Assembly (NCBI GenBank): GCA_050014015.1
Contig: JBEKEC010000046.1
Location: 2,405-66,404, forward strand
DNA length: 64,000 nucleotides
Reading direction: 5' to 3'
Source: Tepidisphaeraceae bacterium
GTDB taxonomy: Bacteria > Planctomycetota > Phycisphaerae > Tepidisphaerales > Tepidisphaeraceae
Shown: positions 6,097-63,269 of the stretch, one piece after another
Position numbering within the stretch: the first letter of the stretch is position 1
Layout: each line of letters starts with the position of its first letter
Program-made: the position numbers and the translations under genes
Notes under the pieces: generated by a model
Seen by the model: the letters and a program-made list of their open reading frames with translations, nothing else
Told to the model about the DNA's origin: nothing
The model's database searches: none

Positions 6097-7641
6097 TTAT
6101 TCCCATTCAATGGTCGCCGGGGGCTTGGAACTGATGTCGTAAACGACCCGGTTCACGCCACGCACCTCATTGATTATCCGATTGCTCATCTGAGCCAGAA
6201 CGTCAAACGGAATCCTCGCCCAATCGGCGGTCATGAAATCCTGGCTCTCGACGGCACGAATCGCGATCACCCCGTCATAGCTGCGAGCATCGCCCATCAC
6301 CCCCACCGTGCCGATGGGGAGGTAAACGGCAAACACCTGCGCGGTCTTGCGGTAAAGATTGGCGGCGATCAGCTCCTCTAGGACGATCTCATCGGCATCG
6401 CGGAGGATTCGCAAGGTCTCGGCGGTGATCTTACCAATCGTCCGCACCGCCAGCCCCGGACCCGGAAACGGATGCCGCCAGACGATTGACTCCGGCAACC
6501 CCAGGACCTCCCCCACTTGCCGAACCTCATCCTTGAACAAATCCCTCAGCGGCTCGACCAACTCGAAGCCCAGTTCCTCCGGCAACCCGCCGACGTTGTG
6601 ATGCAGCTTGATGTTGGCGGCGGTGCCGGCATATCCGTGGCCGCTCTCAATGACGTCCGGATAAAGCGTCCCCTGAGCCAGGAAATGCGCGCCTTGGATC
6701 GATTGCGCCCCGCGCTTGAATGCTTCGATAAACTCCCGGCCAATGATCTTGCGCTTCTGCTGCGGATCGGTCACGCCATCCAAAGCCGATAGAAATTGCC
6801 CGGAGGCGTCGAGCGTTTTCAGATTGATTTTGAAGTGATCGCCGAACGTGGCTTCGACCAGTTGCCGTTCGTTCTTCCGCAGTAATCCGTTGTCGACGAA
6901 GATGCAGGTGAGTTGATCGCCGATGGCCTTGTGCAACAGGGCGGCGACGACCGAGCTGTCCACGCCGCCGGACAAGCCGCAGATCACCTTGCCGTCTCCA
7001 ACTTGCCGGCGAATCCGGGCGATCGCCTGCTCGACGAAGTTGCCCATCGTCCAGGTGCCGGAACATTTGCAGATTTCGTAAAGGAAGTTCTGGAATATTT
7101 GCTCGCCGCGCGGGGTATGCGTCACTTCCGGGTGAAACTGCACGCCGTAGAACGGCCTGGTGACGTGGCGGGCGGCGGCGAAGGAACAGGTCGGCGTCGC
7201 CGCCAGGGCGACGAAATCCGCGGTCAATTCGTTCACCTGATCGCCATGGCTCATCCAAACGGTGGTGTCTTGGGGCAACCCGCGCAGGAGCGGATCGTCG
7301 GCCACGATGTGCAGCCGGACCCGGCCAAACTCCCGCGCCTTGGCGGGCTTCACCTGCCCGCCGAGGACCTGGCAACCCAACTGCATTCCATAACAAATCC
7401 CCAGGATCGGCACGCCAAGATCGAAAATCTTCGGATCGCACCGTGGAGCGTTCGGCTCATACACGCTGCTCGGCCCGCCGGAGAGAATGATGCCCTTGGG
7501 CTCGAGTTTTTTAAGCTGCTCAGCCGGGATGTCCGGCCGGACCAATTCGCTGTAAACACCCTTTTCGCGCACCCGCCGGGCGATGAGCTGGGCGTACTGC
7601 GCTCCGAAATCCAGAATGGGAATGACTTCGTCGTGAGGCAT
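6097..7641 (-). CDS. guaA: GMP synthase (glutamine-hydrolysing)
   Basis: Full-length match to the GuaA pattern: [26 protein letters not shown].., a GATase Cys box ILGICYGMQ, the ATP-PPase box [10 protein letters not shown], and a C-terminal ..[10 protein letters not shown] moved the start to ATG 7641; the upstream ORF extension is repeat-encoded. Confidence 0.95.
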
Positions 7642-7684
7642 TTGTAGGTAATAACTGGGGACGGGGAAAGTGGCAAGGGGAGGG

Positions 7685-7770
7685 AGATTGGGGAGATTGC
7701 CGATTGCCAATTGCCGATTGGGGGAGGGAGTGGGGCCGATTGCTGATTGCCGAATGCCGAATGCCGAATG
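7685..7770. repeat. GATTGCC / GAATGCC heptamer simple repeats in the guaA leader
   Basis: The sequence shows gagattggggagattgccgattgccaattgccgattg ... ccgattgctgattgccgaatgccgaatgccgaatg. All units are in one orientation. Confidence 0.6.
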
Positions 7771-8029
7771 AGGGAGGCGAGGGCATTTGACACATTTGGC
7801 GCTTTTCACATTTTGCTTTGTGATTGATGGCTTATCTTCGTGGCGTAAATTGTTTGCCGGAATGGGGTTGCGATATCGGCGGTGCGAGGATGGGATTTGG
7901 CGCGGGGGAAAGCGCCAAATTTGGCGGAATGTTGCTGAAACATTTGGGGCCTTACCGTTTCGTGGAAAAACGGATCGGCGGATGCTGGTGGCATTTGAGT
8001 TGAAGTAGAATAGACTGGGAGAAACCCCT

Positions 8030-8278
8030 ATGGACGAAGCGACGATTCGACTGCGCGTGGAGCCGCTGGAGGAAGGCGGGTTCGTGGCAACAAGCCCGGA
8101 CGTTCCCGGCTAGGTTGCCGAAGGGCGCACCATCACCGAAGCAACGGAGATCGCCCAGGGGCTTGCCCGCAAGATTGCCGAGTCCTGCCTGGAGCATGGC
8201 GATCCGGTTCCGCCGGCGCTAGCGCCGATCGCGACCAAAGGATCAATCGACCTGCTCGTTCCCGTCGGCGTGCGATGA
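8030..8278 (+). pseudogene. hicB: HicB-family antitoxin with an in-frame TAG
   Basis: Translation is [61 protein letters not shown].. The amber codon at 8111-8113 interrupts the conserved 'PDxPGxxxxGxTxEEA' core. Confidence 0.6.
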
Positions 8279-57886: not shown

Positions 57887-58588
57887 ATGGCGCAATTGCA
57901 GACGAGTCGAGCGGTCCGGGGAGAGGTGGATGAGTTGCGCTCCGGAGACCGGATGACGCGAGAAGAATTTCATCGCATTTACGAGCGAATGCCGGAGGAT
58001 TTCAAGGCGGAGCTCGTCGGAGGGATTGTTTACGTGGCTTCACCACTGAGAGTTGGGCATGGAACCGCCCATTCGGTTCTCAACGCGGCTTTGGCCATGT
58101 ACATGTCCGCAACCCCAGGGGTGGAAGCAGGGGACAACGTTACGGTGCTTCTTAGCGACGATTCCGAGCCGCAACCCGATTTGTTCCTGAGAATTCTGCC
58201 GAAATACGGGGGCCAATCGAAAACCACGAAGGGGGATTACCTCCAGGGACCGCCAGAACTATTGGCGGAGATTGCGTACAGTTCGCGAGCGATCGATCTT
58301 CACGCCAAGCGAGACATTTATGCGCGCTATGGCGTTTTGGAGTATCTGGTTCTATCGCTGAAAGAACGGGAGCTGAAATGGTTCGATTTACGGGCGAACA
58401 AGGAACTAGCCGCTGATAGCGACGGGGTATGCCGGGTTCACGCCTTTCCCGGGCTTTGGATTCACGTTGAAGCGATCCTGCAACGCAATTATCAGCAGTT
58501 GATGGCAATGCTGAAGCAGGGACTGGAATCGCCGGAGCACGCGGATTTTGTGGCGAAGCTGGCGTCGGCACATAAGCCGCGAGGTTAA
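57887..58588 (+). CDS. Uma2 family (DUF820) restriction-endonuclease-fold protein
   Basis: It has ..AELVGGIVYVASP.., ..SEPQPDLFLRI.., ..PELLAEIAYSS.. and ..KRDIYARYGVLEYLV. Confidence 0.8.
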   Translation: MAQLQTSRAVRGEVDELRSGDRMTREEFHRIYERMPEDFKAELVGGIVYVASPLRVGHGTAHSVLNAALAMYMSATPGVEAGDNVTVLLSDDSEPQPDLFLRILPKYGGQSKTTKGDYLQGPPELLAEIAYSSRAIDLHAKRDIYARYGVLEYLVLSLKERELKWFDLRANKELAADSDGVCRVHAFPGLWIHVEAILQRNYQQLMAMLKQGLESPEHADFVAKLASAHKPRG

Positions 58589-61059: not shown

Positions 61060-61294
61060 AGGCGGAGTTGCTCGTATCCCGCGTGCGCAATCATCCGGCC
61101 GATTTTTCGGGTGGGAATGACGGGCGATTTGAGTCCAAATCTCGTCATCCCGACTTTGTTGCAGCACGGTTGCCCGTACCGGTCCAGAGATTACAGTCGT
61201 TCCCCTTATCCTAAGCGGGAAATCGTGGCGGAACTACGATCAAAGGCCCCCGACCCATTCACGCCCCCTTTGAATTTCGCGCGTGCAGCGATAG

Positions 61295-62263
61295 TCATGC
61301 GACAATCTTGCAGTTCGGAAGGGCTTTCCGGAGTTGCTCAACGGTTGCAGATGACACGCTGCAACCTTTCACGTTGAGCATTTTTAGCGAGGTCATTCGC
61401 CGTAGCGACTCAAGTACCTTGTCAGTCGTATTGGTATCCGCCAAGTCGAGCACTTTCAGATGTCGGAACGCCAGTAACGAGCACAGAGCGGACTCGGCGA
61501 TATGCTTGCATTTGTACAGGACCAGGGAATGAAACTGTGGTTGGGTAGCCAATTCCATTAGAGTTCCAAGATCGGCGTCCTGCAGTCCAAAATCGGCCCG
61601 AAATCGGTATACTTCTCCCGGCTTGAGTTTGACAGTGTCCGGGGTCAGTTGTCCCTCCCGTTGGCTTCCGAACTTTTCGCCAGGCAGGTCCTTAATCGAT
61701 TGCCATCTCCCGGAGGCGGCAATCTGGACCACCTTCAGTTCTGGTTCGGGTTGCCTCAGAGGCGCAAGCAGTATGTCTCGAAGACAGTACTCCAGCGCCC
61801 CCTGTAGCTTCTTTCGTTCAGAGGCACGTTCGGATTCCGCAGGCGGCGCGTTATATGTAAGTACTCGCTTCAGCCGAAGGTCAAACGGAAGTTGCTCAAC
61901 CGTCCCAAAGGCCGTGTTCATTACCATGATGATTCGATGCTGTCCGAGAGCCTTGAGTGCATAGCCAAGTTCAATCAGGACATTTGGGTTCGGCGTAAAC
62001 CGGGTCTCTTCATTGGCCCCTTTGTTGATGACAGAAACATCGCAGACAAAGATCAGAGATTCGTCGATCTTCCCGAGGATTGTGGAGAAAATATCAGGGC
62101 TACCGGGAACTCCCGCTGTGTCGCGATCGACCACCGGCTCAACTTGGACACTTCCGTTTTCACGCAATGTCTTGGTTGCCGCTTCGAGGGCCGTGTGAAT
62201 AAAACCCCTATTGGTTGAGTTGGGTAGGTCCGACTGCCAGGAGTAAAAAACGGTGTCTGCCAT
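61295..62263 (-). CDS. TIR-like / nucleoside 2-deoxyribosyltransferase-like N-terminal domain fused to C-terminal leucine-rich repeats
   Basis: I moved the start to ATG 62263. The N-terminal MADTVFYSWQSDLPNSTNRGFIHTALEAA..GSPDIFSTILGKIDESLIFVCDVSVIN..PNPNVLIELGYAL..RIIMVMNT..LPFD resembles TIR-like stand-alone effector domains. The C-terminus is ..LKVLDLADTNTTDKVLESLRRMTSLKMLNVKGCSVSSATVEQLRKALPNCKIVA (LRR). Confidence 0.55.
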   Translation of the reverse strand: MADTVFYSWQSDLPNSTNRGFIHTALEAATKTLRENGSVQVEPVVDRDTAGVPGSPDIFSTILGKIDESLIFVCDVSVINKGANEETRFTPNPNVLIELGYALKALGQHRIIMVMNTAFGTVEQLPFDLRLKRVLTYNAPPAESERASERKKLQGALEYCLRDILLAPLRQPEPELKVVQIAASGRWQSIKDLPGEKFGSQREGQLTPDTVKLKPGEVYRFRADFGLQDADLGTLMELATQPQFHSLVLYKCKHIAESALCSLLAFRHLKVLDLADTNTTDKVLESLRRMTSLKMLNVKGCSVSSATVEQLRKALPNCKIVA

Positions 62264-62637
62264 CGCGTGTCCTGCCACAAGGATATGAAGACCGCGCATC
62301 ACGTCAATTCAGGAATGCTTTTTGCCGATGAAATGAAGCCATCCGTGCCCGCTCCATCGGCCACCCCTACGGCGATCCTGCCAAGATGTTCAAGATCATG
62401 ATCGACGGCCTCGACCAGAATCCGGCACCGGGGTAACTAAAGGGTCCGCGACCTATGTATGTGATATCCATCCGAAATAGTTGATCTTGACGCATAAAAC
62501 GCAGAAAAAGTTCGACTGGTGTCCCATCATTCCGATTTGATGAGACGGAAAGCCCTTTGGCGAAACATCTAATGGAGGCGTGAAATGTTCGCCCCGCGCT
62601 CTATCGGGCTGGATGAAGATTGCGGTATGATATCCTC

Positions 62638-62898
62638 ATGGTTGCCGCTGTCCGCCAACTTGTGAAGGTTCAATCCAACGGTCGCATTGAGATAATTGCG
62701 CCGGAGCTTCGTGCCGGAACCGTTACGGAGGTAATCGTCTTGCTTCCGCATGAATCGACGGTGGCAACGCCCGCCGAGCGGGTCGCCGCATTGGCGCGGC
62801 TGAGGGATAACATCGGATTGACTGCCGAAGCTGCCGATCGCTGGGCGGGAGAAGTCCGTGCCGAGCGTGATGCCTGGAACCCACCAGTTGAGCCATGA
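62638..62898 (+). CDS. vapB: VapB-type antitoxin (fold not resolved)
   Basis: This small ORF's stop overlaps the vapC ATG (ATGA). It begins MVAAVRQLVKVQSNGRIEI.. Confidence 0.55.
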   Translation: MVAAVRQLVKVQSNGRIEIIAPELRAGTVTEVIVLLPHESTVATPAERVAALARLRDNIGLTAEAADRWAGEVRAERDAWNPPVEP

Positions 62899-63269
62899 TT
62901 CACCTGGACACGAATTATCTGATTCGCTCCCTCGTACCTAAGACCCAGCAAGCCGCACAGCTTGATTCGTGGATTTTGGCGGGTGAGACAATCAGCACCA
63001 GCGCGATGGCGTGGAGCGAGTTCCTTTGCGGGCCATTGTCGCCAACGCATACCTCCGCAGCGCTGGCAATACTGGCTGCGGTCGAATCTGTCACAACCAC
63101 CGACGCCGCATTGGCCGCCGATCTTTTCAACAAATCCGGTCGCCGCCGCGGAAGTCTGGCCGACTGCATCATCGCCGCCGTCGCTCTGCGATTGGGAGCA
63201 TCACTGGCAACTGAAAATCGGGCTGATTTCAGTCCACTGGCAAATCTCGGCCTAACCCTTATTCCATAG
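62895..63269 (+). CDS. vapC: PIN-domain VapC-family toxin
   Basis: It has MIHLDTNYLI.. (first acidic residue), ..MAWSEFLCG.., ..SLADCIIAAVAL.. and ..LATENRADF. Confidence 0.85.
   Translation: MIHLDTNYLIRSLVPKTQQAAQLDSWILAGETISTSAMAWSEFLCGPLSPTHTSAALAILAAVESVTTTDAALAADLFNKSGRRRGSLADCIIAAVALRLGASLATENRADFSPLANLGLTLIP

Follow-up and report, generated by a model that had tools for sequence, protein, structure and literature searches.

Can a single bacterial gene, with neither an NTPase domain nor partner genes, carry both the sensor and the effector of a conflict system? The question is raised by a gene on the minus strand of a 64,000-nucleotide stretch of DNA (the window) from a Tepidisphaeraceae bacterium (assembly GCA_050014015.1, contig JBEKEC010000046.1, positions 2,405–66,404 of the forward strand). 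An original prediction, made without database searches, had seen here a Toll/interleukin-1 receptor (TIR)-like or nucleoside 2-deoxyribosyltransferase (NDT)-like domain fused to leucine-rich repeats (LRRs). The product, here called the TIR-LRR protein, is predicted to combine a TIR-like domain of the Cap12/PycTIR type with a short array of LRRs, and we judge the chances to be roughly even that it is a cytoplasmic single-polypeptide conflict protein, most likely an anti-phage or abortive-infection sensor joined to an NAD+-cleaving enzyme (NADase).

Architecture and integrity of the TIR-LRR gene

The assignment of residues 1–168 to a Cap12/PycTIR-type TIR-like domain, with Glu98 as its candidate catalytic residue, is supported by the agreement between hidden Markov model (HMM) matches, a fold search with a predicted structure, and the invariance of Glu98; the N-terminal domain that the original prediction had proposed is thus upheld. 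The sole Pfam match in the first half of the protein is to PF10137 (CAP12/Pycsar effector TIR), with an E-value (E) of 1.2e-4 over the NPNVLIELGYA region, and the PADLOC "Effector TIR" models for CBASS (cyclic-oligonucleotide-based antiphage signaling systems) match the same region with E 2e-4. Among 61 relatives with diverse C termini, PF10137 matches 38 at E ≤ 1e-3 (best, 9e-6) and the PADLOC CBASS TIR effector model PDLC00731 matches 41 (best E, 4e-8); a precomputed PF10137 annotation is present on some relatives.

The AlphaFold2 model of residues 1–172, obtained with an alignment of 117 homologs, has a predicted local distance difference test score (pLDDT) of 86.4 and a predicted template modeling score of 0.84. 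It comprises five strands (residues 3–8, 39–43, 71–75, 111–116, and 134–137) with helices in between, in a flavodoxin-like βA–βE/αA–αE fold with a long loop between βC and αC. The top matches of this model among PDB structures, as found with Foldseek, are the TIR domains of TIR-STING proteins (SfSTING, 7un8, E 6e-7; also 9lmq and 9lmr; TM-scores of 0.56–0.60), followed by SPARTA TIR-APAZ and, below these, by generic flavodoxin-like reductases, NDTs, and MilB at E of about 1e-4. The top match among predicted viral structures is a TIR protein with a Cap12/PycTIR name (E 2e-12, TM-score 0.68, 31% identity), which is BFVD entry A0A3G4ZNQ9 from Terrestrivirus sp., a giant virus from a metagenome.

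Glu98, the residue originally picked out from the "ELGYA" motif, is invariant in all 117 relatives of one alignment (A2) and in all 61 diverse representatives of another (A3), and in the model it lies on the helix formed by residues 93–106. It is a candidate catalytic residue, putatively equivalent to the Glu on helix αC of solved TIR domains. About 30 further positions in the N-terminal domain (N-domain) are invariant, including Tyr7, Asp12, Arg47, Asp75, Asn92-Pro93-Asn94, Asn116, and Pro126-Phe127-Asp128.

The C-terminal half begins just past helix αE, at about residue 170, with a linker and a β-rich segment in which the full-length model (pLDDT 77.5 overall) has strands at residues 179–182, 186–189, 210–213, and 219–224 with pLDDT values of 50–80. 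The segment is conserved in orthologs (GRWQ..KD.PGEKFG...GQ.TP..VKLK.GEVY.F.AD.GL) and may be an LRR cap or part of a sensor. It is followed by a solenoid of alternating strands and helices with pLDDT values of 87–95, in which the tandem 24–26-residue LxxLxLxxC/NxxI/L units that define the LRR class were found over residues 228–322. Single units are legible in the sequence (HSLVLYKCKHIAESAL..., LKVLDLADTNTTDKVL..., and LKMLNVKGCSVSSATV...) with the pattern LxxLxLxxCxxI. The structural matches found with Foldseek are to FBXL2 (6o60, E 3e-6), RNase inhibitor, Skp2, NLRP1, and NLRX1, and a phmmer search of PDB sequences weakly matched the LRRs of KDM2A (E 1.3e-4); Pfam LRR models taken individually remain below threshold (E 0.002–0.2). 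The LRRs that had been predicted are therefore present, but they occupy about 95 residues rather than 130, the remainder being the β-rich segment. With residues 176–322 alone as query, only the clade to which the protein belongs and two weakly matching LRR proteins were found, with no LRR donor among them, and a scan of the window gave no second LRR gene of the "...LPNC.." kind. A possible repeat domain at residues 190–233, suggested by 18 matches to a 2,393-residue protein (P0215), was rejected: P0215 is a DUF7507/DUF11 immunoglobulin-like repeat protein, and the match is not evidence of homology because its score is built up from repeated weak similarity to a short strand motif, "TPxxVxLxPGE".

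The gene that encodes these domains is real and intact, with an open reading frame that runs from an ATG at 62263 to a stop codon at 61297–61295. A longer start at GTG 62302, which lies 39 nucleotides (nt) upstream and would add 13 residues, was rejected in favor of the ATG because the extension is not conserved among orthologs; the N termini of all full-length orthologs have the form M-A/P-x-T/N-V-F-Y-S-W-Q. Reading frame and ortholog starts agree with the originally predicted extent of the gene, which is exact. The seven full-length orthologs, from metagenomes and one Gemmataceae metagenome-assembled genome (MAG), are 70–80% identical to the TIR-LRR protein. The ratio of nonsynonymous to synonymous substitutions (dN/dS), determined by the Nei-Gojobori method against two orthologs, is about 0.09–0.13 for the whole gene, 0.04–0.08 for residues 1–170, and 0.13–0.18 for the C-terminal half. 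Because the ratio is low in each half, both are seen to be kept by purifying selection, the C-terminal half changing about 2–4 times faster. Many metagenomes from peat and wetland contain DNA nearly identical to the gene. Three identical 151-nt fragments within the gene, at low depth, were found in one wetland metatranscriptome, which also contains a single identical 502-nt contig over vapBC (window positions 62628–63129) with a depth about threefold that of the fragments. Transcription is only weakly indicated by these data, since DNA carry-over could also explain the fragments. Promoter and terminator scans around the gene gave matches at chance level only.

The N-domain family and its genomic settings

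The one-gene fusion of LRRs and a TIR-like domain, expected to be unusual, was found as described, but it is no isolated oddity. When 1.84 billion representatives of 50%-identity clusters were searched exhaustively with HMMER, 1,048 proteins reached E ≤ 1e-30, almost all of them aligning over residues 1–165 only, and a word-indexed search gave thousands of additional relatives. The N-domain is 60–80% identical between Planctomycetota, Cyanobacteria, Chloroflexota, and one "Armatimonadetes" MAG. Past residue 170 the proteins are unrelated: an all-against-all BLAST comparison of 239 tails of at least 60 residues separated them into 61 clusters, so that, judged by sequence, at least 61 unrelated C-terminal modules are attached after helix αE. 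Pentapeptide repeats, WD40 propellers, and DUF7910 are among them, one cluster matches the PADLOC candidate PDC-S65 and another a HEAT-ARM model, and most have no Pfam family; helical tails of other members gave matches to designed helical bundles when PDB sequences were searched. The LRR version was seen in just 11 sequences, apparently all of them from Gemmataceae, and is a rare one. In a tree of the N-domain, the eight of these that were included form one clade (support 92), and the sister of this clade is a pentapeptide-repeat protein (P0012) with an N-domain 79% identical. Because this is as near as the N-domains of some LRR orthologs, the exchange of C termini is recent relative to N-domain divergence.

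The four orthologous loci of the TIR-LRR gene have no neighbor gene in common, and tblastn searches with the neighbors of two orthologs (loci L001 and L007) against the window and the other planctomycete loci found nothing shared. The protein also has no NTPase domain, and on both counts the single-gene character that had been predicted is confirmed. The L001 ortholog begins 12 nt after a gene with a cytidine-deaminase domain, a second ortholog is placed after a tyrosine integrase gene, and the L007 ortholog follows a gene with a NucS-C nuclease domain. The 286-residue product of the L001 deaminase gene (7129–7989) matches PF00383 (cytidine/deoxycytidylate deaminase, E 1e-14) and, weakly, AID/APOBEC-like and MafB19-like families; the pairing of this gene with a TIR-LRR gene is seen only at this locus. 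On the contig of an uncultured Gemmataceae MAG (L022), a 38-codon fragment at 8016–8126, LRQMTSLKMLNVKGCRVSRTAVNRFRDDLLNCKVVG followed by a stop codon, lies directly after an ArfB-like gene and matches only the last LRR and the C terminus of the TIR-LRR protein (62% identity). It looks like the 3' end of a gene copy that has otherwise been lost. The differing sites of the orthologs, the lack of shared neighbors, this remnant, and the foreign composition of the window gene point to a mobile, self-sufficient single gene that has undergone gain and loss.

That foreign composition had been anticipated from spot counts. The gene has a G+C content of 52.8%, against 59.3% for the window, which places it at the 4th percentile of 969-bp windows, and its G+C content at third codon positions (GC3) is 0.58, close to the values for vapB and vapC and well below those in the typA, 129-residue protein, GATase, and FGGY genes (0.78–0.84). 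Together with vapBC and two intergenic stretches it forms an islet (Table 1) between core genes, bordered by typA and the gene of a 129-residue, tetratricopeptide-repeat-like exported protein at one end and by an FGGY kinase gene at the other. No integrase gene, tRNA gene, or notable flanking direct or inverted repeats were found at the islet borders. The vapBC module was correctly recognized, through the PIN domain of VapC and the overlap of the two genes; the VapB-like protein itself has no Pfam match. The gene remnant that had been placed on the other flank was not found: short reading frames in 61060–61294 and 62303–62619 gave no family match and have no repeat elsewhere in the window. A separate gene at 57887–58588 of the plus strand encodes a putative restriction-endonuclease-like protein of the Uma2 family (DUF820; PF05685, E 6e-24) and has a GC3 of 0.62, low beside its core neighbors; four Uma2 genes also occur near cyanobacterial members of the N-domain family.

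Table 1. Coordinates of the TIR-LRR gene, its parts, and the surrounding islet in the window
Feature	Position	Strand	Basis
TIR-LRR protein (P0001), complete coding sequence, 322 codons and stop	61295..62263	-	open reading frame and translation
Cap12/PycTIR-type TIR-like domain (supported assignment), residues 1–168 (βA-αA ... βE-αE)	61760..62263	-	HMM, AlphaFold2 model, Foldseek
Glu98 codon (GAA), candidate catalytic Glu, NPNVLIELGYA motif on helix αC	61970..61972	-	read from sequence, alignments, model
Linker and conserved β-rich segment, residues 169–227, possible LRR cap or sensor part	61583..61759	-	ortholog conservation, model
Three to four cysteine-containing (FBXL/RNase-inhibitor-type) LRRs, residues 228–322, ending ...LRKALPNCKIVA	61298..61582	-	model, Foldseek, phmmer
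Compositionally atypical islet (TIR-LRR gene, two intergenic stretches, vapBC) between core genes	61060..63269		G+C profile, GC3
VapB-like antitoxin gene (92 residues), low-GC3 islet	62620..62898	+	4-nt overlap with vapC; GC3 0.59; metatranscriptome contig
VapC PIN-domain toxin gene (124 residues), low-GC3 islet	62895..63269	+	PF01850 PIN, E 8e-11; GC3 0.60

Other members of the family were found on 68 plasmids, of which 56 are conjugative, in Providencia, Proteus, Rhizobium, sphingomonads, and E. coli. One relative sits in a defense island, between type I restriction-modification/GmrSD genes and Wadjet genes, and PIN or DUF433 toxin-antitoxin genes adjoin family genes in four loci, the window and three further ones. 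On a Ruegeria plasmid (NZ_CP065363.1; L005, 4090–6266), the gene of a 421-residue member annotated as "nucleotide-binding protein" overlaps the end of an AbiEii toxin gene by 4 nt, an apparent abiEi-abiEii-TIR-like operon as far as gene order indicates; the same arrangement of AbiEii and family member is seen on a Phaeobacter plasmid (CP104102.1). On a Rhizorhabdus plasmid (NZ_CP023451.1; L029, 103–6659), the gene of a 552-residue member is the first beside Tn7-like tnsA, tnsB, tnsC/tniB, and tniQ genes and is possibly transposon cargo. A 275-residue member annotated as "hypothetical protein" (WP_050511319.1; L004, 5656–6483) is encoded on IncF plasmids of E. coli such as NZ_CP122728.1 and NC_009787.1. 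It is present on plasmids of five of 5,426 complete E. coli genomes and is flanked on the L004 plasmid by IS91 copies and repA. Since members occur on plasmids of E. coli and Providencia, the family is open to experiment, with WP_050511319.1 as a convenient test candidate.

Proposed function and alternatives

In the mechanism that we propose, the Cap12/PycTIR-type domain would be the effector, a glycosidase that uses Glu98 on helix αC and most likely cleaves NAD+; the TIR domains of TIR-STING, TIR-SAVED, and PycTIR are NADases. The β-rich segment and the LRRs would form a sensor or regulatory module for a protein ligand, for example a multimeric phage component. Ligand binding, or the release of autoinhibition, would allow the TIR domains to assemble and deplete NAD+, and the variable C-terminal module would in general control the assembly of the TIR-like domain. 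Because repeat domains of the LRR, WD40, and pentapeptide kinds bind proteins rather than nucleotides, and because there is no signal-producing partner, the trigger is probably a directly sensed macromolecule. The protein would have originated by recombination of the N-domain, after helix αE, with unrelated C termini and would have reached the host genome as a mobile single gene.

Several observations weigh against this reading, in addition to the structural likeness to NDTs considered below. The PF10137 match of the TIR-LRR protein scores 22.5 bits against a gathering cut-off of 24.7 bits, and a sequence search of the PDB with the protein or the family profile matched no solved TIR or NDT structure. 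No recognizable defense island surrounds the gene in the window, vapBC being its only conflict-type neighbor, no phage-encoded homologs were found in 50,697 phage records, and diversifying selection was not seen in the LRRs in the two-ortholog comparison. Of 12 loci of the largest subfamily, which consists of cyanobacterial proteins of about 480 residues, nine have the phosphoketolase gene xfp alongside (L002, L012, L013, L014, L016, L017, and L026; within 5–7 kb in L008 and L015); they come from Nostocaceae, Okeania, Trichodesmium, and Microcoleaceae. Within Nostocaceae the two genes are co-directional with a gap of 69–83 nt. DUF2079 genes (6 loci) and cytochrome P450 genes recur nearby, there are few PADLOC matches, and the whole resembles a housekeeping context with vertical descent; the proximity to xfp could mean that the genes are functionally connected or that the site is an old hotspot for insertion. 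We infer, and do not assert, a NADase or defense function for the TIR-LRR protein; the largest subfamily lies beside phosphoketolase genes rather than in defense islands. The neighborhoods of homologs are mixed, with plasmid, toxin-antitoxin, and defense-island settings on one side and this subfamily on the other. Homologs are not consistently found in housekeeping contexts, the acidic residue is conserved, and the N-domain was not assigned to any unrelated fold.

The cyanobacterial loci give most weight to a non-immune role, such as NAD+- or nucleotide-linked regulation or signaling, in which the C termini would tether the enzyme to different partners in the cell and the LRR protein would act as a regulator particular to its lineage. 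The recurrence of xfp, DUF2079, and P450 genes across Nostocaceae and Microcoleaceae, the conservation of the N-domain across phyla, and purifying selection throughout would all be consistent with such a role. We nevertheless consider it unlikely for the TIR-LRR protein: the window gene and its orthologs have no conserved neighbors, the composition of the window gene is foreign, other relatives lie on plasmids, beside Tn7-like genes, in the AbiE operon, and in a defense island, and rampant swapping of C termini is typical of conflict proteins. If the phosphoketolase-linked subfamily is metabolic, it would represent a TIR-like enzyme recruited outside immunity.

A second alternative keeps the architecture and the conflict role and changes the chemistry, the N-domain being an NDT/MilB-like N-glycosidase that acts on nucleotides or nucleosides of the (deoxy)nucleotide pool. 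The Foldseek matches to NDTs and the CMP hydrolase MilB (E of about 1e-4) speak for it, as do viral NDT or CMP-hydrolase proteins among the viral structure matches, and a motif of the ELGYA type is also compatible with it. The invariant Tyr7, Asp75, Asn92/Asn94, Glu98, and Asn116 may correspond to the Tyr/Asp/Asp/Glu/Asn active-site set of Lactobacillus NDT. Even at E ≤ 1, however, no NDT-family Pfam model matches, while PF10137 and the CBASS TIR models do, and the matches to TIR-STING and to the viral Cap12/PycTIR protein are 2 to 7 orders of magnitude stronger than those to the NDTs. NDT is clearly the weaker match, and we think this chemistry quite improbable. That the TIR-like domain serves without catalysis as an adaptor or scaffold, in the manner of animal Toll-like receptor signaling, or that the protein is a secreted TIR/LRR effector against a eukaryotic host, is highly improbable: both domains are known from bacterial effectors and NCBIfam models of the XopAC and XopL LRRs give weak likeness (E 0.015–0.04), but these scores are far under their cut-offs, the invariant Glu at the catalytic position and some 30 other invariant residues argue for an enzyme, an N terminus that opens with strand βA leaves no signal peptide or secretion signal, and the hosts are free-living peat and wetland bacteria.

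The sensor-NADase reading of the TIR-LRR protein can be extended, tentatively and with more doubt than conviction, to the N-domain family as a whole, which might be an unnamed and widespread class of one-protein pattern-recognition receptors. In such receptors, LRR, WD40, and pentapeptide modules would recognize invader proteins, and the TIR-like NADase would fire without a STAND (signal transduction ATPase with numerous domains) NTPase or a second-messenger partner. The TIR-LRR clade would then represent the LRR-to-TIR receptor in a minimal prokaryotic form and show that the pairing can serve as a self-contained immune unit.

Comparison with known systems

The systems nearest to the TIR-LRR protein are the Cap12 effectors of CBASS (TIR-STING, e.g. 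SfSTING, PDB 7UN8, 9LMQ, and 9LMR, and TIR-SAVED) and PycTIR (PF10137), which are of the same TIR subtype as judged by fold and by an HMM match just under the gathering cut-off of PF10137. They carry an N-terminal TIR effector and a C-terminal sensor in one polypeptide, the arrangement proposed for the TIR-LRR protein, and share with it a conserved Glu on helix αC. They differ in that their sensors recognize a cyclic nucleotide, the product of a partner cyclase, whereas the TIR-LRR protein has LRRs and no conserved partner gene: no CD-NTase or pyrimidine cyclase gene was found beside the window gene or at the orthologous loci, and the protein contains no SAVED, STING, or cyclic-nucleotide-binding sensor. 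Thoeris is likewise not indicated, with no ThsA-type gene (SIR2/SLOG or Macro/transmembrane) within 5 kb in the window or at the orthologous loci and no ThsB_TIR Pfam match. SPARTA TIR-APAZ has a structurally similar TIR domain, but the TIR-LRR protein is without an Argonaute partner. The PADLOC candidate PDC-S35, a single-gene TIR-like system, matches around the Glu motif with E 0.01–0.05, too weak for membership, and reaches E < 1e-3 for only 3 of the 61 relatives.

The resemblance to animal Toll-like receptors and to plant TIR–NB-ARC–LRR receptors, which the original prediction had stressed, is confined to the pairing of LRRs, for recognition, with a TIR domain, for output. The order in the TIR-LRR protein is reversed (TIR, β segment, LRR), there is no transmembrane or hydrophobic segment and no NB-ARC/STAND NTPase, the three to four LRRs are of the cysteine-containing FBXL type, and the TIR domain is assigned to the Cap12/PycTIR clade and not to PF01582. 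The likeness is almost certainly the result of convergent domain shuffling. Our search of the open-access literature found no description of a bacterial TIR-LRR fusion, of LRRs joined directly to a Cap12-type TIR domain without an NTPase or signaling partner, or of the N-domain family.

A precedent for the proposed model is provided by the Swarozyc/DUF4062 proteins, one-gene TIR-like NADases with variable auxiliary domains that are reported to be activated by direct assembly with a phage protein, the portal (bioRxiv 10.64898/2026.05.01.722283). They share with the TIR-LRR protein a single-gene TIR-like domain with variable auxiliary domains, but they form a separate TIR-like family: membership in DUF4062 (Swarozyc/Evangelion) was considered and rejected, with no DUF4062 match at E ≤ 1 for the TIR-LRR protein and none among the families listed for the 61 relatives. 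Single-polypeptide TIR effectors fused to sensors are already established through TIR-STING, TIR-SAVED, PycTIR, and, recently, DUF4062. The larger point lies in the N-domain family, which exceeds 1,000 clusters at 50% identity and in which dozens of unrelated C-terminal domains are joined to a TIR-like module of unusual conservation at a sharply defined point just past helix αE. If its C termini are sensors, this family would offer a natural collection of modules for recognizing triggers, all built on one shared NADase chassis.

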